A stretch of DNA of 43,724 nucleotides from an uncultured Methanosarcinales archaeon (GTDB lineage: Archaea > Nanobdellota > Nanobdellia > Woesearchaeales > CAXGTL01): the NCBI GenBank assembly GCA_964535955.1, contig CAZHVK010000010.1, positions 1 through 43,724 on the forward strand, written 5' to 3'. Positions 5,862 through 26,745 of the stretch are shown one piece after another. The stretch's first letter is position 1; each line of letters opens with the position of its first letter. The notes beneath the pieces are model-generated. The model saw only the letters and a program-made list of their open reading frames with translations, searched no databases and had not been told where the DNA came from. The position numbers and the translations under genes were made by a program.

Positions 5862-7358
5862 ATGGAGATAATACAAATGACTTTAGAAGATAAAGTATCA
5901 TTTAGAAATACATTATTAGGTTATAAAACAGAAGAAGAATGGAAGAGTTATAGACCTTGTGCTAATAAAGGTAAAGGATTTTATAGATTTGAATTAATAT
6001 TTGAAGGGGAAAGAATTACAGGCAAAAAACTTATTAAAAAATATTCTCAAATCTTTCCTTCTGACAAAAACTATTCACATAGAGCTGAACTTAATAGGAT
6101 GTTGTCTGAATGTAATGTTCCTCAATTTTCTTTTTCAGATACTGATATTTTAAAAGGATTTCTATTGTCAGCAAAAACAGAATTATATTGGAAGAATGAA
6201 GGTTTACCTTCAAATGTAAAGTTTAAACAAATGGATTTTCAATATTATGGTTTTAAAATAAAAGGGAAAATGTTAGCAAATAATGTGTTTGTTGAATTGG
6301 AAAACAAAAATAATGGGACTTATTATGCATTTGCAGATTATCAACAAGACCCTATTTTAAGTAAGAAATTAACTAAAGCAAATTGCAAAGAATTTTATGA
6401 AAAATTATTTGAAATTGCTGGAATAAAAATTAGTAAATCAATCTCTAGGAAAAGTATTTCAAAAGAATTGTTAAGGAGATTTTTACTTAATACTATGAGT
6501 GAGGAAGAATGGGCAAAAGGGCTAAAAAATTATGATAATTTTGAAAATATGAAATTTAAATTAGAAGGGCATCAACAGGTTACAGGAAGGATATTAAGAA
6601 AAGCATATGAAAGAACTAAAGGTAAAACATTATCATTAGATGAAATGTTCCAAGATGTTGGTATTTCTTACAACGCAAAAGATTTAAGGAAAATACAAAA
6701 TAGAACTGATTTTCAATCAGAAATGAAAAATATATTTACAAATCCTAATTCTTTAAGAAAATCATTTTTAGAAATTATGACTGAAGAAGAATGGAGAAAA
6801 CCAAAGGAATTTAGTGCAATAAGGTATAAAAAAATCAACATAAATGGCAAAGAAATAAATTTACATACACTTATGTATAATTATAGTTTATATAAACATA
6901 ATCTTCAACAAAACAAAGTTGAAGATTTTTTAAATATGAATGATATGAGAAAAAATTGTAACAAAAAACTAAAGGGTCCAAGTTCAGGAAAAATTTTAAA
7001 TGAAATTCTTGATATAGCGGGAATACAAAATAGATGGTTTGCGACTTTTGAAGATATTAATTTGAAAGATTCTAAATTTCTTAGAAGAGCTTTTTTAAAT
7101 ATAGAATATCAAGGAGTCTCCATTTCAATAGAAGACTTTAAAAAATTAAGTTGGCCTGAAAAAAGAAGAGCCAGAGTAAAAGATAATGAAATTGGGTTTG
7201 ATAAGTCTGTTCATTCATTCATATTACATTTTTCAGCATATGATTTTTGGAAAAAACATAAGGACAAATATTCTTTTATTTATGTTGTAAATGACTTAAA
7301 AAAAGGAAAATCTAGAAAAAAAGTATTAAATGAAATATTAGACCTAGCTGGTTTGTAA
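5862..7358 (+). CDS. Hypothetical protein built of ~5 divergent repeats
   Basis: Recurring (L/F)RxxxL...(T/S)EEEW starts and ExLDxAG(I/L)-like ends. TTTATAAA promoter at 5816-5823. Confidence 0.8.
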   Translation: MEIIQMTLEDKVSFRNTLLGYKTEEEWKSYRPCANKGKGFYRFELIFEGERITGKKLIKKYSQIFPSDKNYSHRAELNRMLSECNVPQFSFSDTDILKGFLLSAKTELYWKNEGLPSNVKFKQMDFQYYGFKIKGKMLANNVFVELENKNNGTYYAFADYQQDPILSKKLTKANCKEFYEKLFEIAGIKISKSISRKSISKELLRRFLLNTMSEEEWAKGLKNYDNFENMKFKLEGHQQVTGRILRKAYERTKGKTLSLDEMFQDVGISYNAKDLRKIQNRTDFQSEMKNIFTNPNSLRKSFLEIMTEEEWRKPKEFSAIRYKKININGKEINLHTLMYNYSLYKHNLQQNKVEDFLNMNDMRKNCNKKLKGPSSGKILNEILDIAGIQNRWFATFEDINLKDSKFLRRAFLNIEYQGVSISIEDFKKLSWPEKRRARVKDNEIGFDKSVHSFILHFSAYDFWKKHKDKYSFIYVVNDLKKGKSRKKVLNEILDLAGL

Positions 7359-8172: not shown

Positions 8173-8254
8173 GTTATTGTTTTTGACATTGCTATATATA
8201 AATCTTATTATGATGTTTAATGCTTCTTTTCATCACCAATTAGTGATTAAAAAT

Positions 8255-8269
8255 GGAAACATTTATAAA
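8255..8269 (+). promoter_or_regulatory. BRE/TATA promoter of the AAA+/VWA operon
   Basis: GGAAAA-like purine run GGAAAC followed by ATTTATAAA; SD GGAGTGA at 8343-8349. Confidence 0.55.
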
Positions 8270-8355
8270 GGATTATGTACTTCCCATATATATTAGTTAT
8301 ATAGTAAAAAGAGGTTTCTTAGGTGTTTTAATACAAAATATAGGAGTGATATAAA

Positions 8356-9657
8356 ATGAAAATGGATTATATAGCATGTCAGTTGAATATTGCTAAACTA
8401 GATGAAGTTCAAAGAATAATATTATCATATGAACTTAAACAAAATGTTGGTTTGTGTGGGCCAGCTGGTGTTGGTAAAACAGAATTAGTAGAAGGTCTTG
8501 TAACATTGCTTGACAAAAGAATGCATGCTATCACATGTGATGAAAGGATGACTGAAAGTGGAATAATTGCTTATCCTGTATTAGAATCAAATGGTGGTAC
8601 AAAGACTGGTTATAGAAATAATGTTCTTGCAGAAGCTTTGCTAAATGGTGAAGGTTTTTATGGTGATGAGTTTGAATTATTAGATGGAAGTCTTCAAAAA
8701 AGAATGAATTCTGCTTTTGATCATAGAAAAAGAATAACAAGAAGAGATGGAGTTGTGATCATATCAAGAGATGCAAGAGACTTTGACAGGTATGTTAAAA
8801 CATGTCTAAGAAAAGGTTGTGTTTTATCTGATGATAAAACCAAGATAGTAATGAAGATAGGTGATTTTGATGAAAAAATAGTAGCATTATTAGGAAAACC
8901 AGGATTTTTTGGAATAATTGCATATAATCCAAAAGCATTTCATAGGCAGGAATTAGAAGATTCTGTAGCAGACAGGTTTGTAAACATATTTTATGATTAT
9001 TTACCTGAAAAAGTTGAAGCTGCAATTGCTCTAAGATTGTCTGGAATTGATACTGAAATAAAAGGCAAAGGTTTAGAACAAAGAGCAATCTATAATAATG
9101 GCAATGATTTTGAATTTTTAAAAAGAGAGCATGATTGTGCATCATGGAAAATATTGAATGGTAATTTATTCAATGAAGATGTTGATGATAATCATGAAAA
9201 CTTAACAATATATGAAACAGTTATTGGCAATAACCTAGAATTAAAAGTTGAATATGATTATGAGGACATACTTAAATTCGCACTAGAATTAGCTAGGTTT
9301 AACCAAGTTGTTAGAAATTTTGCAGATAATGGAACAAAAGGTCTTGATGAAGACACAATCAGAAATCTAAAAGATCAAGAAAACATAACAATAGGTGAAA
9401 CAAAGAAAATAAAATTACACAAACCTAGTCCAAGAACACTGCAGTATGCTATTAGTGAAGCTAAAAGATTAACAGACAAAGGACTGCCATATGAACTAGT
9501 AAAACAGCATGCAGCTATGCTTGCAATTGACCAGATCTGTACAGGTAGTTTGAAAACAAGTCTTGTTGATGAATTGCAATTGTATGAATTGATCACTACT
9601 TTAGCAAGGGTTGAAGGTTTATTGCCAAGAGTTGATCAAAGATCTGATTTAGGATAA
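8356..9657 (+). CDS. MoxR-clade AAA+ ATPase (CbbQ/NirQ/NorQ-like)
   Basis: Walker A GPAGVGKT, Walker B FYGDE, sensor-1 region IIAYNP, Arg finger ADRF, sensor-2 SPRTL. Confidence 0.9.
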   Translation: MKMDYIACQLNIAKLDEVQRIILSYELKQNVGLCGPAGVGKTELVEGLVTLLDKRMHAITCDERMTESGIIAYPVLESNGGTKTGYRNNVLAEALLNGEGFYGDEFELLDGSLQKRMNSAFDHRKRITRRDGVVIISRDARDFDRYVKTCLRKGCVLSDDKTKIVMKIGDFDEKIVALLGKPGFFGIIAYNPKAFHRQELEDSVADRFVNIFYDYLPEKVEAAIALRLSGIDTEIKGKGLEQRAIYNNGNDFEFLKREHDCASWKILNGNLFNEDVDDNHENLTIYETVIGNNLELKVEYDYEDILKFALELARFNQVVRNFADNGTKGLDEDTIRNLKDQENITIGETKKIKLHKPSPRTLQYAISEAKRLTDKGLPYELVKQHAAMLAIDQICTGSLKTSLVDELQLYELITTLARVEGLLPRVDQRSDLG

Positions 9658-9659
9658 GG

Positions 9660-9677
9660 TTTTTTTTGTTTTTTTTT
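9660..9677 (+). terminator. Oligo-T tract (archaeal intrinsic terminator-like) after the AAA+ gene
   Basis: T8-G-T9 immediately after the stop codon. Confidence 0.5.
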
Positions 9678-9705
9678 GTATTTGATTTATTAAAGGGGAT
9701 TAATT

Positions 9706-12255
9706 ATGCCATGGTTTCAAGGGCTTGAAAAAGCTGTCAAAGAATGTGAAAAGAATATTCATAATGAAATACCATTTTACAGGGTTTTGTTAAAAAGAAA
9801 GCTCTTGGATAGTGTAAAATTACTTTCTGAATTATATGAAGATGATAAAAAAGCAGAAATCATTGTTGATAAGATAAGTTTTGTTGTAAAGTATAGACAT
9901 GATGCAAAGTCTGCAAAAAATCTTGCTAATATCTTTGTTTCTAATGAATATAAAGATATGATGGATAGTCTTGAAGTAAATTCTTGCAACCATGTTACTC
10001 ATTCTATTGGATGGGGAATGAGGAAGAATAAAGAAATAGTTGACATGTTGATTGATGTTTATAAACAAGATGATTTTAAGGATTTTTCTAAGAAATATAA
10101 TAAGAAAAAAAAAACAATTGAAAAATCAGTAAAAAACATATATTCACTAGTCAAAAAACATAAAGATAATTCACTAGCAAAAACATTTGTAAAAATATTG
10201 AATAATGATAAACTTGAGAAAATAGTAAAACATGAATTTATTTCTCAGTATGGTGGGAGTATCATAGATTATGTGAGTGATTTCTTTCTAAAAACAAAAG
10301 ATGAAGAAACTACAAAACAATTCATAGATATAATTGATGATTCTATGTCAAGAAGAAGTGTTCCTTGTGAAATTGGTAAAGCTGTTGTAAACAAGATCAA
10401 GGATTCTGGTGTTGAAAAAGGTTTGAAATTAATGAATTATTATAAAAGTGGTGAGTTCAATGAACTTATAAAAGGGATGGATGATGGTGAAGGTGGAAAG
10501 ATTGTTGACATATGTGAAAAAGTTTTTGATAATAGAAAAATATTAAAAGCATGTGAAGGACTTGTTAAAGATCTAAAGTCTGCTTTGAAAAATATAAAAA
10601 GAATATCTGCAACATCTACTTATGAATTTACACAAACATGGGGCACTGCTTTGTTAGGAAATATAGCTGATCTTTATACTATGACAAAAGATGAAAAACT
10701 AACATTAGATGTTGTTGATCTTGTCAAAGAAATAGATATACCATATGTTTCTACTAGAATGGTTGTTGCAAGGGGTTTTGGTGGGATTGCTAAGTTAAAA
10801 GAGAAAGTGAATGTATTAGGAGATAGGTTTGAATCTCTTAGACAAATATGTTATAAAGATTATTTCAAATTAGTAAGAAAATTTAAATCAGATAACATTA
10901 CTCTTGGAACACTTGGTTACAGTGTTTCTGATGCTACTGAACATGGCATGTACCATACCATGGTATTGATCAATAAATTTAGTGGATATAAATTTGAAGA
11001 GATTGTTAATTGTGTGCATAAACAAGATTTTGGTGATGGAGAAGAAAAAGATATACAAAGAGAAATAAGTGCTCATAAAGAAATGTCTACAATGGCTATA
11101 GGCCATTTTTCTAATCATACTAAAGATGCAAAAATGACAGATGATTTGATCAATATCTTGTATAATCAAGTTGAGAATCCTATATATGTTGGAAACATGG
11201 TTTCTGTTTTTTATAAATTAGTTGATAAAAAGAATGATGTTGAGATATTGGGTAATTTTATTGATCTTCTTAAAGATTATGAATCTGAAAAAGAAATGCA
11301 GATGAAAATCCTGAACATGGTGTATGCTGCTTCTGTTGGTGTTAGGAGATTAAGAAGCGGTGGTTATTTAGAAGAAAAAAATAATATAGACCAAACACAA
11401 GCTGCAATCAATATCTGCAATGGTTCTAAATTTATTGACTTGATAAATAAATTTGAATTAAGTAAAAGAGATGCAATAATGGGGCAGATAGGAGAAGTGT
11501 TTCAATATGGTGGTGTTGAACAACAAGCTAAAGAATTAATGAAACTTTATGATTCTGATGAGTTTTTTGATCATGCTAATGAATTAGACAAAAAAGGATT
11601 AGAAGAACTTGCGAATGGATTGTATTGTTTAAATAGAAATATTGAAGACAAGGATTTGGTTAAAGAAATAACTGATTTTGCATATGATTGTGAAGAAAAA
11701 AGATGTGCAAAACTGCTTCATAATATTGGCAGAAGTACTTATTATGAAAATCATGATTGTTTGTTGTTTTTAGAAACATTCAAGCTATTGCCTAATATTG
11801 AAGGACATGTTTATGAAAGTTTTTTTGAATATCTTAAAGATTTTAATTTTAATTGGTGTGTTAAAAAGAATGAAAAAGTAAATTCTTTGTTAAGACAAGA
11901 AAAAGAATTTTTTGATAAACAAGGTTCTGATGTTATATTTCCAATGGTTTCTATAATGATGAAATTAGGTAAGGAAGAGGATATGAAACAGAAATATTAT
12001 GATAAGATAAAAGCATTGGATTCTTATGACAGGCTTAATCTTGCTAGGGCTTATAATATTGTGAAGAATTATTGTGACAAAGACAAATATAGAAGAGATG
12101 AAAAATCTTTTGAAACTTTTTTTAATTCATTAAAAACAGCTTTAAAAGAAAAGCCAGAGATAATAGGTAAATGGAGCAAAAGAATCATAGATGGTTATTC
12201 TGACAAGATCAAGGATGGTGTGCTGCAGGAGGTTTGTGAACATGTCGCTGGATGA
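9706..12255 (+). CDS. Large helical-repeat protein, paralog 1, with shared C-terminal domain
   Basis: 849 aa. C-terminus LDSYDRLNLARAY...TFFNSLKTALKEKPEIIGKWSKRIIDGY...IKDGVLQEV. Confidence 0.85.
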   Translation: MPWFQGLEKAVKECEKNIHNEIPFYRVLLKRKLLDSVKLLSELYEDDKKAEIIVDKISFVVKYRHDAKSAKNLANIFVSNEYKDMMDSLEVNSCNHVTHSIGWGMRKNKEIVDMLIDVYKQDDFKDFSKKYNKKKKTIEKSVKNIYSLVKKHKDNSLAKTFVKILNNDKLEKIVKHEFISQYGGSIIDYVSDFFLKTKDEETTKQFIDIIDDSMSRRSVPCEIGKAVVNKIKDSGVEKGLKLMNYYKSGEFNELIKGMDDGEGGKIVDICEKVFDNRKILKACEGLVKDLKSALKNIKRISATSTYEFTQTWGTALLGNIADLYTMTKDEKLTLDVVDLVKEIDIPYVSTRMVVARGFGGIAKLKEKVNVLGDRFESLRQICYKDYFKLVRKFKSDNITLGTLGYSVSDATEHGMYHTMVLINKFSGYKFEEIVNCVHKQDFGDGEEKDIQREISAHKEMSTMAIGHFSNHTKDAKMTDDLINILYNQVENPIYVGNMVSVFYKLVDKKNDVEILGNFIDLLKDYESEKEMQMKILNMVYAASVGVRRLRSGGYLEEKNNIDQTQAAINICNGSKFIDLINKFELSKRDAIMGQIGEVFQYGGVEQQAKELMKLYDSDEFFDHANELDKKGLEELANGLYCLNRNIEDKDLVKEITDFAYDCEEKRCAKLLHNIGRSTYYENHDCLLFLETFKLLPNIEGHVYESFFEYLKDFNFNWCVKKNEKVNSLLRQEKEFFDKQGSDVIFPMVSIMMKLGKEEDMKQKYYDKIKALDSYDRLNLARAYNIVKNYCDKDKYRRDEKSFETFFNSLKTALKEKPEIIGKWSKRIIDGYSDKIKDGVLQEVCEHVAG

Positions 12256-14023
12256 TTTGATTGGACTGGATTCATTGAACTTTTATGTAGTTGATTTTGA
12301 TGAAGCAAAACCTAGAATGGTTACAACATTATTACAATATTTTGGATTATTTACAATCAAGCCAGGTGGTTGTCCTAAGACAAATGGAAGAGAAATAATA
12401 TTACCTTCATGCAGGGCTGATTTTGTTGATGAAAAAAAACCACTGCACCTTAATAGAAATGTTAGTTTGTATATTGGCAGTCTGTGCCATGAACTAAGTC
12501 ATATAATTGGTGGATGTTTTGTTATTGATTTTGCAAAATATCTTGTTAATAATTTTGAACAAGTTAAGATTGCACAAACAATACATAATATCATAAGAGA
12601 CAGATGTGATGAAGATTATTTTAAAAGAAAATATGCTAGTAGAAATGATTCTAGATTAATGAAAAATTGTACTGATTACCATGTTCAAAGAAGACAAATG
12701 CCAGAAGATAGGGCAAACAAGTTTTTTGAAATATATTCAACAAAAACAATTGCTGGAAAACACAAAGGAGAATTAGATGAGGATTTTAAACAAGAGATAG
12801 ATGAATTTTTGTCACAAGACATAACAAGTGAAGAAATTAAAAAAACAGGAATAAAAACATTAAAAGATTTATTAGATAAATTAGTTGATATTTCTGTTTT
12901 TGAAAGAGAAACACTTGATGCTGGTAAAGAAAGTCTGCAAGCAACTACACAAGTTTATGAAATAATCATGGAAGAATTTAAAGACATGCCTACATCACTT
13001 GTTGGTTATACAGTAGGTGGTGAACATGGTGAAGGTGAGATAGAAGTTGGTGATATGGATGATATTGATGCAAAACGTGGAGAAATTGATGCAGAATTTA
13101 AAAGAATCAAGGGAAAAATAAAAGCACAAGACAAAGAAGAACAAGAAGATAAAGACAAAAAGCAAAAAGAAACTAATGATGAACCATATTTTGATCATAT
13201 AACAAAGAGTTATAATAATGCGTCAAAAGTGTATGATGAAATTATAAAGGATACAAATCCTAATTTTTTACAAAAACTTAGGAAATATGATTCAATAACA
13301 GAAGAAGTAATTGGTTATTTATTAGAATTACAACCTAATAAAGTGCAGTTAGTTGAAAGAACAACAGAACCTGATGAAATAAATCTAGAAGCTGTTATAG
13401 AAGTTATTGCAGACCCTAGCTTAGGACATGATGCAAGGATCTTTGATTCTATGAGAATAAATAAAAGAGATTATGCTGTTGGGATCTTGGTTGATTGTAG
13501 TGGTTCTACTTGTGAACAGATAAATGGTGATACTATACTTGATATTGAAAAATATTTAGCAGGAATATTATTCCAAGGTTTGAGTTATATTGGAGACAAA
13601 GTAAATATGTATGCTTTTGAAAGTGATTATAGAGAATCAACAGATTCAAGACTTTATTCAATTCCTAATCTAGAAGCATTAGGTTCATTAACACCAACAA
13701 ATGCTAATAGAGATGGTGCTGTGATCAGAAGAATGACAAAGCATCTGATGAATCAAGAAGCAAAAGATAGGTGGATGGTAATTGTTGCAGACGGCAGGCC
13801 AAATGCACATGAATATGATGGTGACATGGCAAGAGAAGATACTGCAAAAGCAATTGAAGAAGCAGAAGGACAAGACATAAGAGTGATCTATCTGAATGTT
13901 GATGATGAACGTCCTGATTATTTCCATAGATTGACAAGGCATGCTACTTATGCAAGATGGTTTAATTCTGTTAAACAATTGCCAAGGTTTGCTTATGATC
14001 TGGTGACAGAGGTAATGGTGTAG
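12242..14023 (+). CDS. NorD/CbbO-like VWA-domain protein with N-terminal HEXXH motif
   Basis: HELSH, acidic linker, MIDAS DCSGS, ANRDGAVIR and IVADGRP. Start reset to ATG 12242 behind SD GGAGGT. Confidence 0.9.
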   Translation: MSLDDLIGLDSLNFYVVDFDEAKPRMVTTLLQYFGLFTIKPGGCPKTNGREIILPSCRADFVDEKKPLHLNRNVSLYIGSLCHELSHIIGGCFVIDFAKYLVNNFEQVKIAQTIHNIIRDRCDEDYFKRKYASRNDSRLMKNCTDYHVQRRQMPEDRANKFFEIYSTKTIAGKHKGELDEDFKQEIDEFLSQDITSEEIKKTGIKTLKDLLDKLVDISVFERETLDAGKESLQATTQVYEIIMEEFKDMPTSLVGYTVGGEHGEGEIEVGDMDDIDAKRGEIDAEFKRIKGKIKAQDKEEQEDKDKKQKETNDEPYFDHITKSYNNASKVYDEIIKDTNPNFLQKLRKYDSITEEVIGYLLELQPNKVQLVERTTEPDEINLEAVIEVIADPSLGHDARIFDSMRINKRDYAVGILVDCSGSTCEQINGDTILDIEKYLAGILFQGLSYIGDKVNMYAFESDYRESTDSRLYSIPNLEALGSLTPTNANRDGAVIRRMTKHLMNQEAKDRWMVIVADGRPNAHEYDGDMAREDTAKAIEEAEGQDIRVIYLNVDDERPDYFHRLTRHATYARWFNSVKQLPRFAYDLVTEVMV

Positions 14024-14026
14024 AAT

Positions 14027-16159
14027 ATGTTATTGGATAATATTGTTATGGAATGTGAACAAAAGATTAGGAAAAAAAAAATAGATCTTGATTTTGATAA
14101 ATTTAAATCTGTTTGCAGAGGTTTGAATGATAATGAAGTTAAACAGATGACTAAAATTATTTGTTATACAAAAGATAAATATATTATTGATGATTATGCT
14201 GAATTATTAGATATTTATTCTGGAAGAAAGGATGAGATTAGTGTAGATATTAAAAAAGCTGTTGAAAAAACAGCTTATATGACAAAAAATGCTGATCTAG
14301 TAAAAGCACTTATTGAATTGTTTGTTTTTTACAAGCATAATAAAGATGTTTCTAAAGAATTAGCAAGAAGAATATGGCTTGTTAATTATTATAATAAAAA
14401 TAAAAAGATTACAAAAGATATTGTCAAGAGTGTTCTTGGATGGTTTAATGATTACAAAGGTAATGAAGATGTTGCATTAAAAGCAACAGAACACATTGCT
14501 AGTGTTTTTTGGGATGATAGTGACATGATAAAACAATACCTGAGATTTATTCATGCTATAAAATATGTAACAGCATATGATGATAGAGACATATTGAATA
14601 GAGTAGAATTTATTAAAAAAGGTGTTTCAAAACACACATTTGGTTGCGGTAAAAGAATGATGAATCTATTGACTTATTTATTAGATAATTATGAAGATGA
14701 AAAAAAATTAATAGGAGATCTTGGTTTTACAATGGGCTTAGCTGTTGATAAATATAATGTTAGTTATGAACAAGCTGATGATTTTATTGGTATATTAGAA
14801 AGATATAAAGATAATTTTAATTTATTTTTTGCAATATGTGATGGACTTGGTTCTGTAATGTCAAACACTGGTGATTATTGTGTGAAGTTGGTTGATAAGT
14901 TTAAGAGTTATGAGTTTACAAATCTTGTTGATGAGTTTGATGAAGATGTTGTTTTAAAGATGATTGAAAAGGTTAGTATGCATGCATTGGGATATACTTA
15001 TATGGATTTTGCAATAGAATTATTTGATATTTATAATTCAGATGAATTCAAGAAATTGATCAATAGTTATGACAAAGATCTAAGAACATTATTAACAGCA
15101 AAAATATCAAGCTGTTGGTATAAAAAAGAATATGCTGAAAAACTGATAAGGTTTTATGATTCTGATAAGATAAGGGATTTTATTGATGAGTTTGAAGGAA
15201 AAACAAGAATGGCAGCCATGTATACAATAGGGCTGATGCCTATCTGTTATAAACTTGAGAAAAATGAGTTTTTGAGTGATTCTGATAAAAAGGTTTTTGA
15301 CAAAACAGATGATATAATGGACTTATTCAGATATTTTAAGAATGGTGAAGAAACAATATATGGTCTGCATTCAGTAATGATAGCTTGTTCTAATTGGCTT
15401 AGTCATGAATATATGTCTTGTGTCATTGATCTATTGAATAATAATAAAGAAAAAGAATTTGTTTTCAAAGGATTGTGTAATGGTTTGGAAGAGATTATTT
15501 CATATCGTAGGGATAGAAGTCGTGAATTTATACCAACATTGGTTGAGGTGTTTAATTCTGATAAGTTCAATGAATTTATAGTTAAGTTTGGTGAAGAACA
15601 AGCTGAGAAAATAATCATATCATTCAATAGAACAAGTTATTATACTGATGGAAATGATTTTTGTGAAGAAGGAAGTGAACGTATTGAAAAAATGATAGAG
15701 ATTTATGAAGATTTAGTAGGTGGTGGATTTGAAGCCAGTGTTTATGAAGAATTAGGTGAATACCTTATTTCAAAAAAATCTAAGAATGTAGAAAGATTAG
15801 GCAAGATTATTAAAGATAATAAAGATCTTTTCTATGGACTTGGCTCTGAAGTTGCTGTTCCTTATATGATAATAATGAATGTTATTGATGATGAGCATCA
15901 TTCTGTTTTAAAAGGATTAAGTAGTTTTGATAAACTGAACCTAGTAAGAGCTTACAAGATATGTAAAGAAAATATAAATAAAGAAGAAAGCGATGATTTT
16001 TATAAGAAAAATTATCTTGGAACATTTTATGAAACATTGAAAAAAGCATTAGAAACTAATCCTGAAATTCTACCTAAGTGGAGCAAAAGGATTGTGGATG
16101 AATATCCTGAGATGATTAAAAACGGAGTGTTGATGGAGGTTTATGATGTCGTTGGATGA
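14027..16159 (+). CDS. Large helical-repeat protein, paralog 2
   Basis: 710 aa. C-terminus LSSFDKLNLVRAY...TFYETLKKALETNPEILPKWSKRIVDEY...IKNGVLMEV. Confidence 0.85.
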   Translation: MLLDNIVMECEQKIRKKKIDLDFDKFKSVCRGLNDNEVKQMTKIICYTKDKYIIDDYAELLDIYSGRKDEISVDIKKAVEKTAYMTKNADLVKALIELFVFYKHNKDVSKELARRIWLVNYYNKNKKITKDIVKSVLGWFNDYKGNEDVALKATEHIASVFWDDSDMIKQYLRFIHAIKYVTAYDDRDILNRVEFIKKGVSKHTFGCGKRMMNLLTYLLDNYEDEKKLIGDLGFTMGLAVDKYNVSYEQADDFIGILERYKDNFNLFFAICDGLGSVMSNTGDYCVKLVDKFKSYEFTNLVDEFDEDVVLKMIEKVSMHALGYTYMDFAIELFDIYNSDEFKKLINSYDKDLRTLLTAKISSCWYKKEYAEKLIRFYDSDKIRDFIDEFEGKTRMAAMYTIGLMPICYKLEKNEFLSDSDKKVFDKTDDIMDLFRYFKNGEETIYGLHSVMIACSNWLSHEYMSCVIDLLNNNKEKEFVFKGLCNGLEEIISYRRDRSREFIPTLVEVFNSDKFNEFIVKFGEEQAEKIIISFNRTSYYTDGNDFCEEGSERIEKMIEIYEDLVGGGFEASVYEELGEYLISKKSKNVERLGKIIKDNKDLFYGLGSEVAVPYMIIMNVIDDEHHSVLKGLSSFDKLNLVRAYKICKENINKEESDDFYKKNYLGTFYETLKKALETNPEILPKWSKRIVDEYPEMIKNGVLMEVYDVVG

Positions 16160-18122
16160 GTTTCTTCAGATGATTGATGAGAAAAATAAACAGATTGAAG
16201 ATGCAAAGGAAAAGATACTAACTAGTTGTCCTGATTTTGATTTTGATAATTTTGAAACTCTTATAAAAAACTATAGGTATAAAAGTGGTGTCTTGAATAT
16301 TGTGCTTGACGCAATAGTAAGTGTTTCTGAATTGTATACAGATAAAAAAACAAGCCAAATGCTGATCAATAAATATAATTCTGAACAATTAAAAAGAATT
16401 GTGAAGCAGGAGAAATACAGATTTGATTTTCCTTATATTGTTGTTAAGAGTGTTGGAAATGCTGTAAAATTTACAGCTAAGGAAGATATTGCACAAATGG
16501 TTATAGATGTTTTTGAATCAGAAGAATTTGATGAGTTTGCAATCAAACATAATAAGAAATGGGAAAATTTTGCAGAGATAATGTTTAAACAGATAGGAGA
16601 ATGCACATACAGAACACAAAACAATGATAAAATAAAAACATTGATGAAGATCTATAATTCAAACAAGTTTAAGAAATTGATTTGGTTTTTTGATTCTCTT
16701 AATCAAGAGGTAGAAGGGTTTAACATAATCGAAGGTGTTGGCAGAACATTCTCAGGAACACAAAACAAGACATTGACATTTGAATTGATAGATTTTTTAA
16801 AAATAAATTGTTCTCTTTTTAATGAAAAATATCTTGCAGAAACTGCAAAAAGTATTGGTAATACTGCATTAGGAATTAACAATTCAAAAATAACAAGAAA
16901 TCTTATGAAATTAGTCAGATCTTATTGGCCAAAAAAAGGCACTGGATTCAGAGAAACACTTGAAACAGGATCAATGATTGTAAAAGAAGTAGAAAATATT
17001 TCTCTTGAATACAATGATAAGTCTTTGACACAAAAATTAATAGAAATCTATGATTCTGATAATTTTAGAGAATTAATAGCTAAACAAAATTTTTTAGGAG
17101 GAAAGGAAATTATTTCAGAGATTATTGAAAGAACACAAAAGATATTAAACTTTTGTCAAAGCAAAGATAAAGTAGATGATTTTTTTGATTTACTGCATGA
17201 ATATTCAAAAAGGGGAAGAATTATTACTGATTTAGTAACTGCTATTGATCGTATCAATAGAAGGTCTGTATTTAGTGAACCCATCTATGACAGGGTTATA
17301 AGATTATTTTATCACTATTCTAAGGATCCTAATAAAGGATTAAGCATTGCAAAAGTTCTTAATGATTTTGCTATTACAAATAATATGATGTTTTGTGGAA
17401 GTGAAACAATTGATCTATTAGAGCACTATAAAGATAATCAAGGATTGACATTTATCATTAACAAAGAAATATCTAAGATCAAGAATCCAATAGAAACTGA
17501 TAATCTAAAAAGATTGATTAAAAGGTATAAATCAAAAAGATTTGAAGATCTGATTGGATCTTATTATACAAAAAAACATAATAAACATTGGATGTTTTTG
17601 GTATCATCAACAATAAGAAAGATCTGTTGTTATAATCCTCATACAGATGTTGCTGATAAAATAATGGATGTTTTTGAACAGACAAGACACAGCAAGTTCA
17701 GGTATAACTTTTATGTCCCTGTTTTGAACCATGTTTTTAAAGATCTAAAAAATCCTGTAAAAATCAAGAATGTGTGTGATGTTTTTATAAAACAAAAACA
17801 TTATCTTGCTAAACAAAACATGGATGTTGGACCTTACTTAGCAATTGTCATGTCAGGTGTTGATGAGAAGTATCATTCAATTGTCAAAGATTTGGATGAG
17901 TATGATAAATTAAATCTTACAAGAGCTTACAAGATTGTTCAGAATTATGATGATAAAGAACCTGGTACTCTTAATACTTTTTACAAAACATTCCAGGCAG
18001 CATTAGAAACAAGACCAGAATCTGTTGGTAAATGGTTGTTAAGGATTGTAAAAGGTTATAAGAAAAAGATTGATGATGGGGTTTTGCAAGAGGTTTATGA
18101 TGCCATTGGAAAGACAGATTAA
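16146..18122 (+). CDS. Large helical-repeat protein, paralog 3
   Basis: ~658 aa, SD GGAGGT at 16135-16140. C-terminus LDEYDKLNLTRAY...GKWLLRIVKGYKKKIDDGVLQEV. Confidence 0.85.
   Translation: MSLDEFLQMIDEKNKQIEDAKEKILTSCPDFDFDNFETLIKNYRYKSGVLNIVLDAIVSVSELYTDKKTSQMLINKYNSEQLKRIVKQEKYRFDFPYIVVKSVGNAVKFTAKEDIAQMVIDVFESEEFDEFAIKHNKKWENFAEIMFKQIGECTYRTQNNDKIKTLMKIYNSNKFKKLIWFFDSLNQEVEGFNIIEGVGRTFSGTQNKTLTFELIDFLKINCSLFNEKYLAETAKSIGNTALGINNSKITRNLMKLVRSYWPKKGTGFRETLETGSMIVKEVENISLEYNDKSLTQKLIEIYDSDNFRELIAKQNFLGGKEIISEIIERTQKILNFCQSKDKVDDFFDLLHEYSKRGRIITDLVTAIDRINRRSVFSEPIYDRVIRLFYHYSKDPNKGLSIAKVLNDFAITNNMMFCGSETIDLLEHYKDNQGLTFIINKEISKIKNPIETDNLKRLIKRYKSKRFEDLIGSYYTKKHNKHWMFLVSSTIRKICCYNPHTDVADKIMDVFEQTRHSKFRYNFYVPVLNHVFKDLKNPVKIKNVCDVFIKQKHYLAKQNMDVGPYLAIVMSGVDEKYHSIVKDLDEYDKLNLTRAYKIVQNYDDKEPGTLNTFYKTFQAALETRPESVGKWLLRIVKGYKKKIDDGVLQEVYDAIGKTD
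17897..18085 (+). repeat. 189-bp exact direct repeat, copy 1 (3' end of paralog 3)
   Basis: Identical base for base to 21279-21467. Confidence 0.95.
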
Positions 18123-21100
18123 AGAGATTGAACAAAGCATTAGAACACATTTGCCTAGTTTTGATTTTAATAGGTTTAATCAAGTAATTGATTATTATGA
18201 AGATAAGAATGATATTGCTGATAGAATAGATGCAGTGGTTCGTACAACAAAAGATGATGAAATTACTAAAGAATTCATGGATATATTAGAGAAGTATAAA
18301 GATAATAATGCAAACAAGATCACCCTAGATGTATTATGCTATTTTCTTAACACAAAAGATAATTCATTAAACAATCAGTTGCTTGAATTGTTAAAAGAAT
18401 TTGATGATGGAAACAAAGTACAGATCATAGCTGATGCTGCTTATGATTTTTCAAAAGGTACAAGAAATAAAGAACTTTTCAATGAATATTTTAATCTTGT
18501 TAGGAAACATGGAAAAGATATAAAGATGTTAAACTTAATAGCACAAGGGATAGCAGACATTGCAAGAGATAAAAAAGATAATAAAGCCATCAAAAAAATA
18601 CTAGAGATATATAATTCTAAAGCTCTTAATGATGTTTGTGATTATTATGAAAATAAGATTTATGATGATTATGACAAGGATTATTATTATAGATATATAG
18701 CTAAATTTATAGGAGAAATATTTTATCATACAAGGTCTTCTGAGATGATTGATGATGTGTTTGATATTTTAAAAATCTACAAGGATATGCACCCTGTTGT
18801 TGGGGTTGTCATGGCAGAAACAATTAAAGATGCTGTTCAGAAAAAAAGGACAAGAAAAACAATAAAAAAGATCATAGATATGTATAAGTCTGATAGGATT
18901 ATTGACTTTTTTCAAAATCAAAACACAGATGAAAAAATAAATCCTTTAGGGTATATAACAGGAGCATTGGGAGAAATATATGAGATTACAAAAGATGAAT
19001 CTCTTGTTATTGGTTTTATGGAGTTCTTAGAAAAGATAGAAAACAAGCTATTAATAGGCCCAATATGTAGAGGTATTACATTAGCAGGTAAAAAAACCAA
19101 TAACAAAAATATAATCAAAGAGATGTTTAGTTTATATAAATGTCTTAAAGAAGAGCCTAAATGTATGAGCATTAGTCTTGGACTTGAAAATGTGTTTGGT
19201 TCTTTTAAGGATGGTGATAAGGATGCTGCAAACATCATAAAAAAATGTATAAAAATAATAAATAAATATAAAGAAAAACCACAAATACTGAATGTGATTT
19301 CTGATCAAATAGCAGGAAGTCTTAGTTTATATAAAAGCAGATTATTAAATTTTATTGATCTTTATAGTGATGATAAAAGAATTCTTAGTTGGGAAAAATG
19401 TTTTGATATGCAAACACTAAGTGAAATCAATGATGTAATTATTGAAAGAGGAAATGATGAAAATAATGTTCTTCTTAAAGAATTATATGGTTTGGTCGAG
19501 TTTTATAAAGATCAAAAAACAATATTAAATGAAATGATTAATCAATTTAAAAAAAGGATAATTGACCAGCTTCAAAAAAAATCCAGTGAAAAAGACAAAT
19601 CAATCGAAAGATTAATCAAGATATACAAATCAAAACAATTAAGAAATCTAATAAATAGATATCAAGAAGTAGAAGGATTTAATAAATACAATTATGAATT
19701 AGAACTCTTAGTGCAAAGTTTTGGAGACCTGACTTCAATAATTTCAGATGAGGATTCTTTTGAAAAGATTTTTGATTTATTTAAGAGTAATCATAAAAAT
19801 ATCACAACAATAAAAAAAATCAATAACAGTATAGAGTCTTTCAATAGAAAATATAAAGATGAAAAATTTACAAAGGGCTTAATAGAATTATTTTATGATT
19901 ATAAAGAAGATTTAAATACATTAAAAAATATAAACAATATCATTTATAATTTAACTCTTCATTATAAAGACGATAAACTAATTAAAAAAATAATAAAAGC
20001 ATTAGAAAAAGGTGATATGAATAATAAAACAATAGAGTGTTTTTCAAATTCAATAAAGCAGATTTCTAGAATAGAGAGTGATGATGATGACGATGAGAAA
20101 AGGAAAGAGAATAAGGATAAAGGTATAGAAGAAATTACTAAAAAAATGTATAAAATATACTTTTCTAAAGAATTTTTAGACCTTGTTGATAATTATGATC
20201 TTGCTGATATAAAAGTTATGATGAGTTTAATTGACGATCAAAATTCGAATGATTGGTTGGCAAACCAGGAAGAACCAATAGAGAAGGGATTTATGACAGA
20301 AAAAAGAATAAAAAGCTTGTTAATTAATTATAATTCTGAGTTTTTTAGAGATTTTATAAAAACTTTTGATGAAAAAATCAAAGAATTAATGATTACTATC
20401 ACTTATAAAAATAAAATTAGTGGAAGAATAAAATCTACTATCAACAGTTTATTAGAGATATATAAATCTGATAGATTTAGAAAGATTATTAAGGATTTTG
20501 ATTATGAAGTTGTGAGATGCGTTGCTTATCACTTAGATTCAGCCATCACCAGGAGAAAATCACTCATCAACAAATTGTTTAATGTCTCTGAATTAGACAT
20601 ATTTAGAAAATTATTAGGAAAAAGGCAAACTAAAGATATAAAAGGAAATATTGCATCATGTGTTTATGCAACTCTTTATGCATCAAACAGAGAAAAAGAT
20701 GCTTTAGAAATCATAAACTTATTAAATAAGTTTGAAAAAAAAGATGAAATTAAAAATATGAGTGATGGAATCTACCAAATGAATGTATTTTTAGAGGATA
20801 AATCCCTTACAAGAAATATTATTAATCTTGCAGATAATTTTGATAATTCTTATGCAGCACATATATTTTCAAGAGTTGGAAATATTGTTGGAAGAAGTAG
20901 TGATAAAGATATGGGTAAAAGATTATTTAGCTTATTAGATGAAAAGAAAAACACACAAGATATATGCAAAACAATTTGTTCAGAACTAAATAGTATTTTT
21001 GTAGAGTTTGAGAATTATGATGTTTCAGATATCTGTTCAACATTGGTTGAGATTTATAGAATTATAAGTCCAAAAAATTCAATGCCTAATGTTTATCAAG

Positions 21101-21513
21101 AGTTTTCAAGCTTTGTCATTGAAAACATTAATGATAAAGATAAGATAGATAAATTAGCATGTTTGGTTGGATCTGAAAGAGAATTTCTAAAAAAACAAGA
21201 TGGTAGCATACTTTATCCTTTGTGCTTAGTAATGTCTGAGATCAATAAGAAATACTTTACGACTATAAAAAATCTTGGTGAGTATGATAAATTAAATCTT
21301 ACAAGAGCTTACAAGATTGTTCAGAATTATGATGATAAAGAACCTGGTACTCTTAATACTTTTTACAAAACATTCCAGGCAGCATTAGAAACAAGACCAG
21401 AATCTGTTGGTAAATGGTTGTTAAGGATTGTAAAAGGTTATAAGAAAAAGATTGATGATGGGGTTTTAGAGACAATCTATAACATACAAGAAGCAAAAGA
21501 GCAAAGTAAATAA
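18100..21513 (+). CDS. Large helical-repeat protein, paralog 4
   Basis: ~1137 aa from ATG 18100 (SD GAGGT at 18090-18094). 63 C-terminal codons are identical to paralog 3. Confidence 0.85.
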   Translation: MPLERQIKEIEQSIRTHLPSFDFNRFNQVIDYYEDKNDIADRIDAVVRTTKDDEITKEFMDILEKYKDNNANKITLDVLCYFLNTKDNSLNNQLLELLKEFDDGNKVQIIADAAYDFSKGTRNKELFNEYFNLVRKHGKDIKMLNLIAQGIADIARDKKDNKAIKKILEIYNSKALNDVCDYYENKIYDDYDKDYYYRYIAKFIGEIFYHTRSSEMIDDVFDILKIYKDMHPVVGVVMAETIKDAVQKKRTRKTIKKIIDMYKSDRIIDFFQNQNTDEKINPLGYITGALGEIYEITKDESLVIGFMEFLEKIENKLLIGPICRGITLAGKKTNNKNIIKEMFSLYKCLKEEPKCMSISLGLENVFGSFKDGDKDAANIIKKCIKIINKYKEKPQILNVISDQIAGSLSLYKSRLLNFIDLYSDDKRILSWEKCFDMQTLSEINDVIIERGNDENNVLLKELYGLVEFYKDQKTILNEMINQFKKRIIDQLQKKSSEKDKSIERLIKIYKSKQLRNLINRYQEVEGFNKYNYELELLVQSFGDLTSIISDEDSFEKIFDLFKSNHKNITTIKKINNSIESFNRKYKDEKFTKGLIELFYDYKEDLNTLKNINNIIYNLTLHYKDDKLIKKIIKALEKGDMNNKTIECFSNSIKQISRIESDDDDDEKRKENKDKGIEEITKKMYKIYFSKEFLDLVDNYDLADIKVMMSLIDDQNSNDWLANQEEPIEKGFMTEKRIKSLLINYNSEFFRDFIKTFDEKIKELMITITYKNKISGRIKSTINSLLEIYKSDRFRKIIKDFDYEVVRCVAYHLDSAITRRKSLINKLFNVSELDIFRKLLGKRQTKDIKGNIASCVYATLYASNREKDALEIINLLNKFEKKDEIKNMSDGIYQMNVFLEDKSLTRNIINLADNFDNSYAAHIFSRVGNIVGRSSDKDMGKRLFSLLDEKKNTQDICKTICSELNSIFVEFENYDVSDICSTLVEIYRIISPKNSMPNVYQEFSSFVIENINDKDKIDKLACLVGSEREFLKKQDGSILYPLCLVMSEINKKYFTTIKNLGEYDKLNLTRAYKIVQNYDDKEPGTLNTFYKTFQAALETRPESVGKWLLRIVKGYKKKIDDGVLETIYNIQEAKEQSK
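21279..21467 (+). repeat. 189-bp exact direct repeat, copy 2 (3' end of paralog 4)
   Basis: Identical to 17897-18085; offset 3382 bp. Confidence 0.95.
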
Positions 21514-24618: not shown

Positions 24619-25557
24619 TTAATCATTTTCTAGGTTAAATGGTTGGTGTTTTTTAAGGTCTTCGCGAGCCATTTTATTAGATATTTCCATATAAATAAGG
24701 GTTGTCTGCAAAGACTTATGACCAAGCTGTTTGTTGATTGTCACAATGTTGACACCAGAATCAAGTGCATGAACAGCAAAAGTATGACGCAAAGTATGAG
24801 GGCTAATTCTTGAGATTTCTTGAAGTCCAGCAAGGACTGCATATTTTTTGATCATTTTTTGGATGCCACGAGGTGTGAATTTTTTGTTCCAATTGCTAGA
24901 AAATAAAGGACCTTTTTTTCTGGTTCCAATGTAAGCTTTGAGTGCCAAAATCAAGTCATCATCAACAATATTTACAATTCTATCTTTTCCACCTTTGCCT
25001 TGTACTACTTTGATAGTGTTGTTCTCAAAGTTCAAATGCTTGATTTCAAGGGATACAAGCTCTGAGATCCTCAATCCTGTATTGTAGAGAAATAGGATTA
25101 AGATCTTGTCTCTGTAGTTTTTTATGACTGAAATAAGGTTTTTCATCTCTTGCTTTGTAAGGTATTTGGGTAGTTTGTGCCTGTATTTTTTGTAGTGCTT
25201 TTTTGGTTGTTTTTGTATAGAATTTTGAGTGCCTTTAGTTGGTAGGCTAGGGTGGGTGGTGGGGGATTTTGGATGGTGGGCAGAGGCCTTCTGATGACTG
25301 GATTCTTGAGTTTTAGAGGGTTTGGTGGGTTTTGGAGGATTTGGATTTTGATGTTGTTTTTGTATAGGTTTTTGTTGATTTAGAAGTGTTGTTTTAGGGT
25401 GGGAGGGTGGGTTGTTAGAAGTAGATTTTGGTTGGATTTTGTGTGTGTTTTTGGTATCAAGATTTGGTTGGTGGTCTGATTGTGGATGATGGGATTCTTG
25501 ATTATGTTGTTGCTTGATTTTCTTGATTTTCTTGATTTTAGGATGATCTTTTTTCAT
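24619..25557 (-). CDS. Xer-like tyrosine recombinase: catalytic domain plus a low-complexity N-terminus
   Basis: LPKYLT, TGLRISEL (R), GKGGKDR (K), HTLRH, LGH and TTLIY (Y). The first ~120 aa are K/Q/P/H/S/T-rich. Start ATG 25557 (SD AAGGTG) or GTG 25569. Confidence 0.9.
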   Translation of the reverse strand: MKKDHPKIKKIKKIKQQHNQESHHPQSDHQPNLDTKNTHKIQPKSTSNNPPSHPKTTLLNQQKPIQKQHQNPNPPKPTKPSKTQESSHQKASAHHPKSPTTHPSLPTKGTQNSIQKQPKKHYKKYRHKLPKYLTKQEMKNLISVIKNYRDKILILFLYNTGLRISELVSLEIKHLNFENNTIKVVQGKGGKDRIVNIVDDDLILALKAYIGTRKKGPLFSSNWNKKFTPRGIQKMIKKYAVLAGLQEISRISPHTLRHTFAVHALDSGVNIVTINKQLGHKSLQTTLIYMEISNKMAREDLKKHQPFNLEND

Positions 25558-25672
25558 TGATTTTGGCACCTTTGCTTTGCTTAAAATTTTTAGGCATTAT
25601 ATCCTGTGAAATACATGAAAAAGTTCGTTTTTTCATGAGTTGATTAAATTCTTTAGTCAGTATTTAAAGGAA

Positions 25673-26117: not shown

Positions 26118-26648
26118 TTAGAAGTTTGAGATCTGTTTTTGTTGGATCTTTACAAGGTTTTGTTTTGTTTGAAGTTCTTTGAATTTTTCTTCTAAAGCTA
26201 TCAATGGATTTCCATTTTTGTAAGTCTTTACTACTGGAATTCCTTTCTCAATAAGATTTGTTATGTAGCTTCTAACCAATGGTTCTGAAAGACCTATTTT
26301 CTCTGAGATCTCAAAGTATGAAATAGGTGAATTTGAGGTGTAGAGAGCCATAAAAGCCATTTTTTCATTAACTGACAATGGCTGAATTTCAATTTTTTCT
26401 TGCTCTATCTGTTTGAAAGATTCTTTATCATCTAAAAAAACCTCAACATTATCTAATCTTAATTTTAGTTTTTCTATTTTCTGATCCATTTCACGGATAT
26501 ATTCATAGTTAGCCTGGATTTCATTAGTATTTTCATTAATAGAGTCCAAATGACCATTTAATTCTTGTTTTAACCTGGAAATAAGCCTTTTAATTGCTTG
26601 TTTAAAACCATATTTTTCATTATTTAGTTTTTCTTGTTTCTCAGACAT
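26118..26648 (-). CDS. Coiled-coil plus C-terminal winged-helix DNA-binding protein
   Basis: Heptad-like region (HLDSINENTNEIQANYEYIREMDQKIEKLKLRLDNVE), then LSVNEKMAFMALY...ISYFEISEKIGLSEPLVRSYITNLIEKGIPV. ATG 26648 with TTTATAAA 25 bp upstream. Confidence 0.85.
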   Translation of the reverse strand: MSEKQEKLNNEKYGFKQAIKRLISRLKQELNGHLDSINENTNEIQANYEYIREMDQKIEKLKLRLDNVEVFLDDKESFKQIEQEKIEIQPLSVNEKMAFMALYTSNSPISYFEISEKIGLSEPLVRSYITNLIEKGIPVVKTYKNGNPLIALEEKFKELQTKQNLVKIQQKQISNF

Positions 26649-26745
26649 CTGCAAAATTAGGTAAGAAGGATGTTTATAAACTTATTTATTTTCATATATG
26701 GTTTAGTTAATTTTATACATGATTTAGTTAACTTTATACATGATT

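Follow-up and report, generated by a model that had tools for sequence, protein, structure and literature searches.

Pairs made of a MoxR-type AAA+ ATPase and a protein carrying a von Willebrand factor A (VWA) domain are widespread, and a client is known for few of them (Rubisco, nitric oxide (NO) reductase, chelatases and some others). In the Bacteroides aerotolerance (Bat) operons, MoxR and VWA proteins are encoded together with TPR helical-repeat proteins; Bat proteins are membrane-anchored and include DUF58 and TPR repeats. Here, we describe an operon located at positions 8356-21513 (+) of a 43,724-nucleotide (nt) stretch of archaeal DNA (contig CAZHVK010000010.1, the whole of which is called the window hereafter), which encodes a CbbQ/NorQ-like AAA+ ATPase, a NorD-like VWA partner and four paralogous, predicted alpha-solenoid proteins, P1 to P4. 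The likely client or adaptor of the motor is encoded in the same operon, as a protein family that is new to current libraries and amplified in tandem. The explanation that we favour, tentatively and with doubts that slightly outweigh our confidence, is that the operon specifies a single remodelling motor driven by ATP, together with paralogous solenoid clients or adaptors that this motor recognises by their constant ends. Like the Bat operons, the locus places a MoxR ATPase beside VWA and helical-repeat proteins; unlike them, it gives no Pfam match to the DUF58 or TPR families and carries an array of paralogues with constant ends. In the literature available as open full text, we found no account of an archaeal MoxR/VWA operon that includes a tandem family of solenoid genes.

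In the NorQD system, it has been reported that a finger of the NorD VWA domain fills the ATPase pore and that force passes via the NorD linker to the target (PMC13036017). Like NorQ/NorD and CbbQ/CbbO, which provide its best sequence matches in the PDB, the operon encodes just one AAA_5 ATPase, whose catalytic motifs are intact, and, as in NorD, the partner is composed of an N-domain, a long linker and a C-terminal VWA domain with a metal-ion-dependent adhesion site (MIDAS). In contrast to the solved NorQ and CbbQ chains (268-281 amino acids (aa); one CbbQ of 380 aa), the operon ATPase reaches 433 aa and contains insertions. The N-domain of the partner also differs from that of NorD, being dissimilar in sequence and bearing a conserved HExxH motif. 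Finally, unlike in NorQD and CbbQO, no cNOR or Rubisco gene is found nearby, the linked genes forming instead a tandem solenoid family.

The other described relatives are the MoxR-vWA ternary (VMAP) systems (Kaur, Burroughs, Iyer and Aravind 2020; PMC7159879). In the logic proposed there, MoxR remodels a third component that has been captured by the vWA domain; the core vWA protein has C-terminal effector fusions, VMAP has N-terminal peptidase or effector-associated domains, and the systems are those of multicellular bacteria. Similarly, the operon brings together a MoxR ATPase, a vWA protein and a fast-diverging, mostly alpha-helical third component with a conserved C-terminal part. However, compared with the ternary systems, the operon VWA domain is C-terminal and without fused effector, and the P proteins, which have no effector domain and no Pfam family, occur in 4 to more than 31 tandem copies in archaeal hosts. 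These systems had been brought up for comparison in a first-pass annotation of this DNA, made from the sequence alone, and the operon does not fit the VMAP architecture as described.

The six open reading frames (ORFs) of the operon are densely packed on the forward strand, in the order AAA+, P1, VWA protein, P2, P3 and P4, and their coordinates agree with the gene order and sizes first annotated. The ATPase gene (8356..9657) is followed by the genes for P1 (9706..12255; 849 aa), the 593-aa VWA protein (12242..14023), P2 (14027..16159; 710 aa), P3 (16143..18122; 659 aa) and P4 (18100..21513; 1137 aa). The VWA ORF opens at 12191, and the 593-aa form, which starts at ATG 12242, is identical to the database protein P0001. 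Similarly, the longest ORF for P4, from TTG 18070, encodes 1147 aa, and the form starting at ATG 18100 corresponds to the database protein P0003 (1137 aa, 99.9% identical). The genes for P1 and the VWA protein overlap by 14 nt, those for P2 and P3 by 17 nt and those for P3 and P4 by 23 nt, a gap of 3 nt separating the VWA and P2 genes; the 48-nt gap between the AAA+ and P1 genes is the sole such spacing in the operon.

The ATPase matches Pfam AAA_5 above the cut-off of 22 (E 1.1e-10, 42.1 bits), and its closest solved relatives in the PDB are CbbQ (5c3c, 2.8e-8; 6l1q, 1.5e-6) and NorQ (9qhd, 2.5e-5). By these sequence matches, it is a MoxR/AAA_5 protein of the CbbQ/NorQ class and is predicted to act as a hexamer-type ring motor. 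The motifs Y-x-D-E (Walker B), ITRRDG, (S)YNP, DRF and LHxPSxR are invariant in 7/7 aligned homologues, as is the G-P-x-G-x-G core of Walker A, the Lys being replaced by Arg in one of them; these motifs presumably fulfil Walker, sensor or Arg-finger roles. Forty-one homologues were found, including proteins from Woesearchaeota and bacterial MoxR proteins (Spirochaetota, Leptospiraceae), among which P0058 is the closest (45% identity by BLASTP). An insertion of ~45-60 aa after ITRRDG (residues ~135-185) is common to the operon ATPase and P0058 and is missing in the five other aligned homologues. When phage and plasmid collections were queried with the AAA+ and VWA proteins, only weak partial matches were obtained.

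In the VWA protein, the N-domain leads into a long charged linker, and the VWA domain is placed at the C-terminus (residues ~374-593 of 593), where no further domain follows. Its residues 374-567 align with NorD's VWA domain (PDB 9qhd_G, E 2.9e-17), in keeping, as for the ATPase, with the relationship to CbbQ/NorQ and NorD noted at first annotation; the Pfam VWA match (E 9e-4, 19.9 bits) stays under the 23.8 cut-off. In an alignment (A5) with an orthologue of 51-52% identity, the residues D418-x-S420-x-S422, T486 and D517, which we take to be the MIDAS site, are invariant. Likewise, H83-E84-x-x-H87 (HELSH or HEISH) is invariant in both distinct orthologues of this alignment. Two predicted strands (38-41 and 51-54) precede the helix bearing this motif (72-89), a region in which the AlphaFold2 model has a predicted local distance difference test (pLDDT) score of ~30; built from three sequences, the model of the whole protein has a pLDDT of 40.3 and was judged unusable. 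No Pfam family, including the peptidase families and CobT, matched the N-domain (residues 1-300) at E<=10, and no similarity to the NorD N-domain was found by sequence, the phmmer alignment being limited to residues 374-567. When the profiles of the VWA protein and the P family were compared, no relation emerged (probability 0.1).

A language-model search for look-alikes of the VWA N-domain returned clusters of viral hypothetical proteins and a partly CobT-annotated cluster (scores 0.95-0.96), which are leads only. In the latter cluster (score 0.95), 53% of the members carry PF06213 CobT; an identity of the VWA protein as CobT was rejected on the Pfam result given above. This lead, along with the kinship of the pair to CbbQ/NorQ and NorD, its closest solved relatives, would fit a conventional chaperone of the NorQD, CbbQO or CobST kind, maturing a metal cofactor or an enzyme encoded elsewhere and having the solenoid genes as functionally unlinked neighbours. 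We consider such a role very improbable: no gene for Rubisco, NO reductase or a chelatase subunit was found by a Pfam scan of the 25 other window ORFs, in agreement with the first-pass annotation for the first two, and Pfam returns no CobT match. Moreover, the solenoid genes are interleaved and overlapping with the AAA+ and VWA genes, and this interleaving recurs in distant genomes.

The favoured explanation, in which the solenoid proteins are clients or adaptors of the pair, relies on what P1 to P4 have in common. Pairwise BLASTP comparisons among them give E values of 1e-19 to 1e-41 (P1 versus P2-P4, 1e-19 to 1e-22), and their last ~125 residues contain 27 invariant columns (alignment A1). 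These sequence comparisons establish a common C-terminal module of ~110-125 aa, well beyond chance, which is encoded at 11875..12252 in P1 (~125 aa; E 3.2e-59 with the hidden Markov model (HMM) of A1), 15782..16156 in P2, 17745..18119 in P3 and 21136..21510 in P4. Its invariant and near-invariant positions are mainly hydrophobic, with one Asn and one Trp. The N-terminus is conserved as well: all four proteins begin with a leader of the form M-[TS]-L-[ED], a helix and P-[DF]-[FY]-[DR], of which there are two versions, 'PFYR...RRK' for P1 and 'P-D-F-D-F-x-x-F' for P2-P4. Over the six window pairs, mean identity amounts to 0.48 in the last 110 aa versus 0.25 in the bodies.

The bodies themselves are related. 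A3, a 328-position profile of the full-length family built from relatives (12 sequences), matches P1 three times (residues 7-238, 308-415 and 461-843), P2 twice, P3 three times and P4 four times, and within each protein the module falls in the final match only. Because of these repeated matches, the bodies are best read as internal duplications of a ~300-aa family unit, and P1 to P4 as proteins that are, by sequence, homologous along their whole length. A repeat of the form 'h-x-h-Y-x-S-x-x-F-x-x-h-I' also recurs in the P proteins, at both the protein and the DNA level. The first-pass annotation had pictured interchangeable solenoids joined to one constant domain. The domain it recognised is real, its consensus matching the 27 invariant columns, although longer than the 65-90 aa then given; the bodies are very divergent, as it stated, and yet not unrelated, so that whole-length paralogues conserved at both termini replace its picture. 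No further member of the family is present in the window, a six-frame HMM scan having returned only the four ORFs P1-P4.

No family above threshold was found for P1-P4 in Pfam, NCBIfam or PADLOC, so that the module lies outside described families, as had been surmised. At the level of Pfam, P1 and P4 have no match at E<=0.1, and P2 and P3 have only sub-threshold matches to unrelated families. The C-terminal domain of VMAP, for which we assume that Pfam holds models, gave no match above cut-off in P1-P4. An AlphaFold2 model of P2 residues 365-710 (53-sequence alignment A4), with a mean pLDDT of 85.5 and a predicted template modelling score of 0.84, consists of 21 helices and no sheet; the module is its most confident part, most of it lying in blocks of pLDDT 94-98. 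The predicted stack of helix-turn-helix repeats resembles generic alpha-solenoids (HEAT, ARM, PUF, TALE-like and designed repeats), from which the P family differs in that it matches no Pfam repeat family and no structure at E<=1e-3. Indeed, Foldseek searches with the P2 model gave no match at this threshold among the 427 PDB and 474 BFVD matches listed. None of the nearest shapes is significant; they comprise designed helical repeats, TALE/BurrH and mTERF, along with phage tape-measure proteins. When PDB sequences were searched with a profile of the P family, the outcome was likewise designed repeats, together with Pumilio, the former scoring higher. The ESM Atlas search with P3 gave a top score of 0.78, under the useful range. 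From the lack of matches in four libraries and of a structural match, the family appears to be undescribed.

Assignment to PUF/Pumilio repeats was considered and dropped: the whole-sequence E value was 3e-5, yet each stretch had an E value of 0.36-0.42, and no Pfam PUF match was obtained. A nucleic-acid-binding solenoid of the Pumilio, TALE or mTERF type was rejected as generic helical periodicity. The P proteins have isoelectric points of 5.2-8.8 and no signal sequence evident by eye, and are presumed from their sequences to be cytoplasmic.

To look for the family elsewhere, an exhaustive search of 1.84 billion proteins was made with the module profile. It showed the family to be very rare, with 54 representatives at E<=1e-3, of which 35 reached E<=1e-10. 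In 53/54, it is the C-terminal end that is matched (proteins of 84-1137 aa); P0055 is probably a false match, since it consists of eight weak stretches and has no BLAST match. No Pfam match above cut-off (E<=0.01) was found among the 54. A word-index search with the P2 module scored none of 201 candidates, the family being visible only by exhaustive profile search, and phage and plasmid collections gave no match to the P2 unit. Most of the credible representatives (39/53) trace to three lineages: four come from the window or a close strain, 26 from contig CAZWBB010000009.1 (25 at >=99% identity, plus P0028) and nine from a Candidatus Woesearchaeota metagenome-assembled genome (MAG), the taxonomic labels being those of the records. 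A genome scan with A3, which used two peptide patterns from the Methanosarcinales-type subfamily that the Woesearchaeota MAG and others may escape, returned only CAZWBB010000009.1; as the patterns came from one subfamily, this does not imply absence elsewhere.

The largest array is found on CAZWBB010000009.1, a contig labelled as an uncultured Methanosarcinales archaeon with a guanine-plus-cytosine (GC) content of 43-44%, which argues against the symbiont-specific system imagined at first annotation. Between positions 19895 and 57353 (37.4 kb), it carries 30 complete family genes and one cut gene on the same strand, all complete ones ending in the module. An extra module copy is cut by the contig end, and P0028 represents at least one further gene outside these 37.4 kb. 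The stretch examined is bounded by the contig end on one side and by its own limit on the other; the array probably runs into the contig end because repeated 3' modules break the assembly. The only non-family gene in the array, placed after its eighth gene, encodes the single VWA orthologue P0002, which is 51% identical to the window VWA protein. As in the window, the ends of the array proteins are more alike than their bodies (48% versus 25% identity, 435 pairs). The genes abut or overlap, which, here as in the operon, suggests from their layout translational coupling. The longest-ORF starts in this array read 'MG.IY.QRFQEAGR..ERCCGM', a string that arises when the conserved 3' end of the gene before is translated in another frame; the true starts, those of the database proteins, adjoin the stop before them.

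In the Woesearchaeota MAG, an AAA+ homologue that is 39% identical to the window ATPase (P0059, MBT6518805) accompanies nine module proteins (MBT6518807-811, 814 and 819-821; locus tags HOK51_03105 to 03175), and all of these are encoded by a contig of 233 kb. A fourth case of co-occurrence is probable, as we infer from the module fragment P0049 and the ATPase P0058, each of which is on a JGI contig of 6925 bp. Thus, in 3/3 loci with visible context, module genes share an array with at least one of the AAA+ and VWA genes, as the co-occurrence test suggested in the first-pass annotation would have it, and the array comprises 4 genes in the window, at least 9 in the Woesearchaeota MAG and at least 31 on CAZWBB010000009.1. 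In these loci, the module has so far been seen only with one or both members of the AAA+/VWA pair, and the pair also exists without the module, since the AAA+ subfamily is wider and extends to the bacterial homologues mentioned above.

Such arrays could also be read as encoding a structure. The P paralogues might join by their conserved ends, head-to-tail or around a hub, into a heteromeric scaffold or filament for which the pair would be an assembly chaperone only, an alternative that we regard as unlikely. Both ends are conserved and the middle is variable, and long, translationally coupled arrays on one strand would yield near-equal amounts of many subunits; the top Foldseek matches, albeit non-significant, are extendable designed repeat fibres. 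MoxR proteins are also presented as maturation chaperones of dedicated complexes in PMC3893208. However, a copy number that differs ~eight-fold (4 versus at least 31) would be odd for a defined structure, and the internal duplications copy the body only and not the ends, so that they supply no fusion evidence of end-to-end contact. If the scaffold were real, it would constitute a large cytoplasmic structure as yet unknown in DPANN-like and methanogen-related archaea.

Returning to clients or adaptors held by constant ends, the DNA of the modules bears on how these ends are maintained. The 3' ends of the P3 and P4 genes share a 200-nt tract (17886..18085 and 21268..21467, both on the forward strand) with 98% DNA identity, a second comparison giving 91% over 239 nt, while the P3 and P4 proteins are only 33% identical over their best BLASTP alignment (403 aa). 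This disparity indicates, at the sequence level, a recent gene conversion. Similarly, a 198-nt tract with 92% identity joins two module ends in the CAZWBB010000009.1 array. The 140-aa protein P0005 is 86% identical overall over 132 aa; its last ~95 aa are identical to the P3/P4 module (window 17730-18119) and the preceding part is about half identical to P3. This sharp switch of identity fits a recombination at the module border.

A family that is amplified and fast-diverging, with constant parts homogenised by gene conversion, is also what could be expected of a conflict or defence system. In that alternative, the solenoids would sense invader proteins and expose the module to the pair, upon which the HExxH domain would fire as a peptidase, making the locus an archaeal analogue of the MoxR-vWA ternary systems, whose concept is taken from PMC7159879. 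The family has a patchy distribution among archaea distant from one another, yet an identity of 51% is kept between the VWA proteins of one genome with 29% GC and one with 43-44% GC; HExxH is kept in both distinct VWA orthologues, and the operon has a tyrosine integrase 3 kb downstream. In contrast, PADLOC matches nothing above noise, the HExxH domain has no Pfam peptidase match at E<=10 and a model pLDDT of 40, the vWA architecture is unlike that of the ternary systems so far described, and the phage and plasmid collections give no match. No toxin-like effector is present either, and on this balance we hold a defence role to be improbable.

We return to the favoured explanation of one motor and its solenoid clients or adaptors. 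Architecture, homologies, gene conversion, arrays and co-occurrence are shown by the sequences, whereas physical docking, direction of action and biological purpose are, at present, inferred. The conserved leader and module would form a common handle through which all P paralogues are offered to a single motor. By analogy with NorQD, this handle would most likely contact the VWA partner, at its MIDAS site or N-domain: because the NorQD pore is filled by the VWA finger (PMC13036017), the solenoids would be held by the VWA partner and not threaded, and the passage of the module through the AAA+ pore, one of the options in the first-pass annotation, is unlikely. The divergent bodies of variable length could offer different binding surfaces, and ATP hydrolysis, acting by way of the VWA linker as it does in NorQD, would serve to load or release the solenoids or their cargo, or to reshape them. 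Gene conversion would hold the handle uniform as the bodies drift.

Several observations weigh against this explanation. Within the module, we found no invariant acidic residue that would suit the role of MIDAS ligand. The 37.4 kb of CAZWBB010000009.1 examined showed no AAA+ gene, and none of the 41 AAA+ homologues sat on this 57,353-bp contig. In the Woesearchaeota MAG, gene adjacency is deduced from consecutive accessions and locus tags, and the VWA gene was not identified. Fourteen representatives lie on contigs of 0.7-6.9 kb, of which 13 bear nothing on context; the fourteenth is P0049, and its co-occurrence with P0058 is deduced solely from their contigs being of equal length within one source. 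Finally, no effector domain is identifiable in the P proteins, which also leans against a role in defence.

The solenoids may be a repertoire of sensors, a set of adaptors or the subunits of a scaffold. The ~eight-fold range of copy number and the patchy spread over distant archaea make us lean to a repertoire, and arrays in which one VWA gene is accompanied by anything from 4 to more than 31 solenoid genes accord with recognition modules kept as a repertoire. A purpose in defence or recognition is a conjecture because no effector domain is identifiable. It is conceivable, if rather unlikely, that the locus represents a new archaeal type of recognition, in which a NorQ/NorD-like motor reads 4 to more than 31 polymorphic solenoid sensors, with ends kept by gene conversion and HExxH as the output. 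If this were true, a sensor-repertoire system would parallel the bacterial MoxR-vWA ternary systems and repeat-based immune receptor arrays, from unrelated parts, and a repertoire would in general amount to machinery of a new class for recognition or defence in archaea. The operon also offers a test case for how a VWA partner picks the targets of its ATPase and how the bodies of a gene family can diverge when its interface has to stay constant.

Upstream of the operon, a 183-nt AT-rich spacer (8173..8355, +) follows a divergent GNAT gene. It contains TTTATAAA at 8262-8269 and GGAGTGA at 8343-8349, 6 nt ahead of ATG 8356, which, on direct reading, are the probable promoter and ribosome-binding site. 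The 498-aa ORF located directly upstream (5862-7358, +) has no Pfam match and, by HMM scan, is outside the solenoid family. The window has a GC content of ~29%, and other genes in it are archaeal in type by Pfam, including those for an Rpb11-type RNA polymerase subunit, PAC2, TrmB, AMMECR1 and endonuclease V; neither Rfam nor tRNA scans gave a match in the window. The tyrosine integrase (24619-25569, -; Phage_integrase, E 1.6e-38) and a helix-turn-helix protein (26118-26654, -), ~3 kb downstream of the operon, may belong to an integrated element. An ORF at 33145-34500 (+), 3' of a DEAD-box helicase gene and unrelated to the operon, encodes a radical SAM domain, and its match to a B12-binding domain stays sub-threshold (24.6 bits versus a cut-off of 32.1). 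A giant ORF (34799-43723, +) runs off the window after at least 2975 aa. Laminin_G_3 matches two stretches of it, Big_7 matches at a sub-threshold level and a PQQ-like match is weak; to judge from these domains, it probably encodes a huge surface protein.

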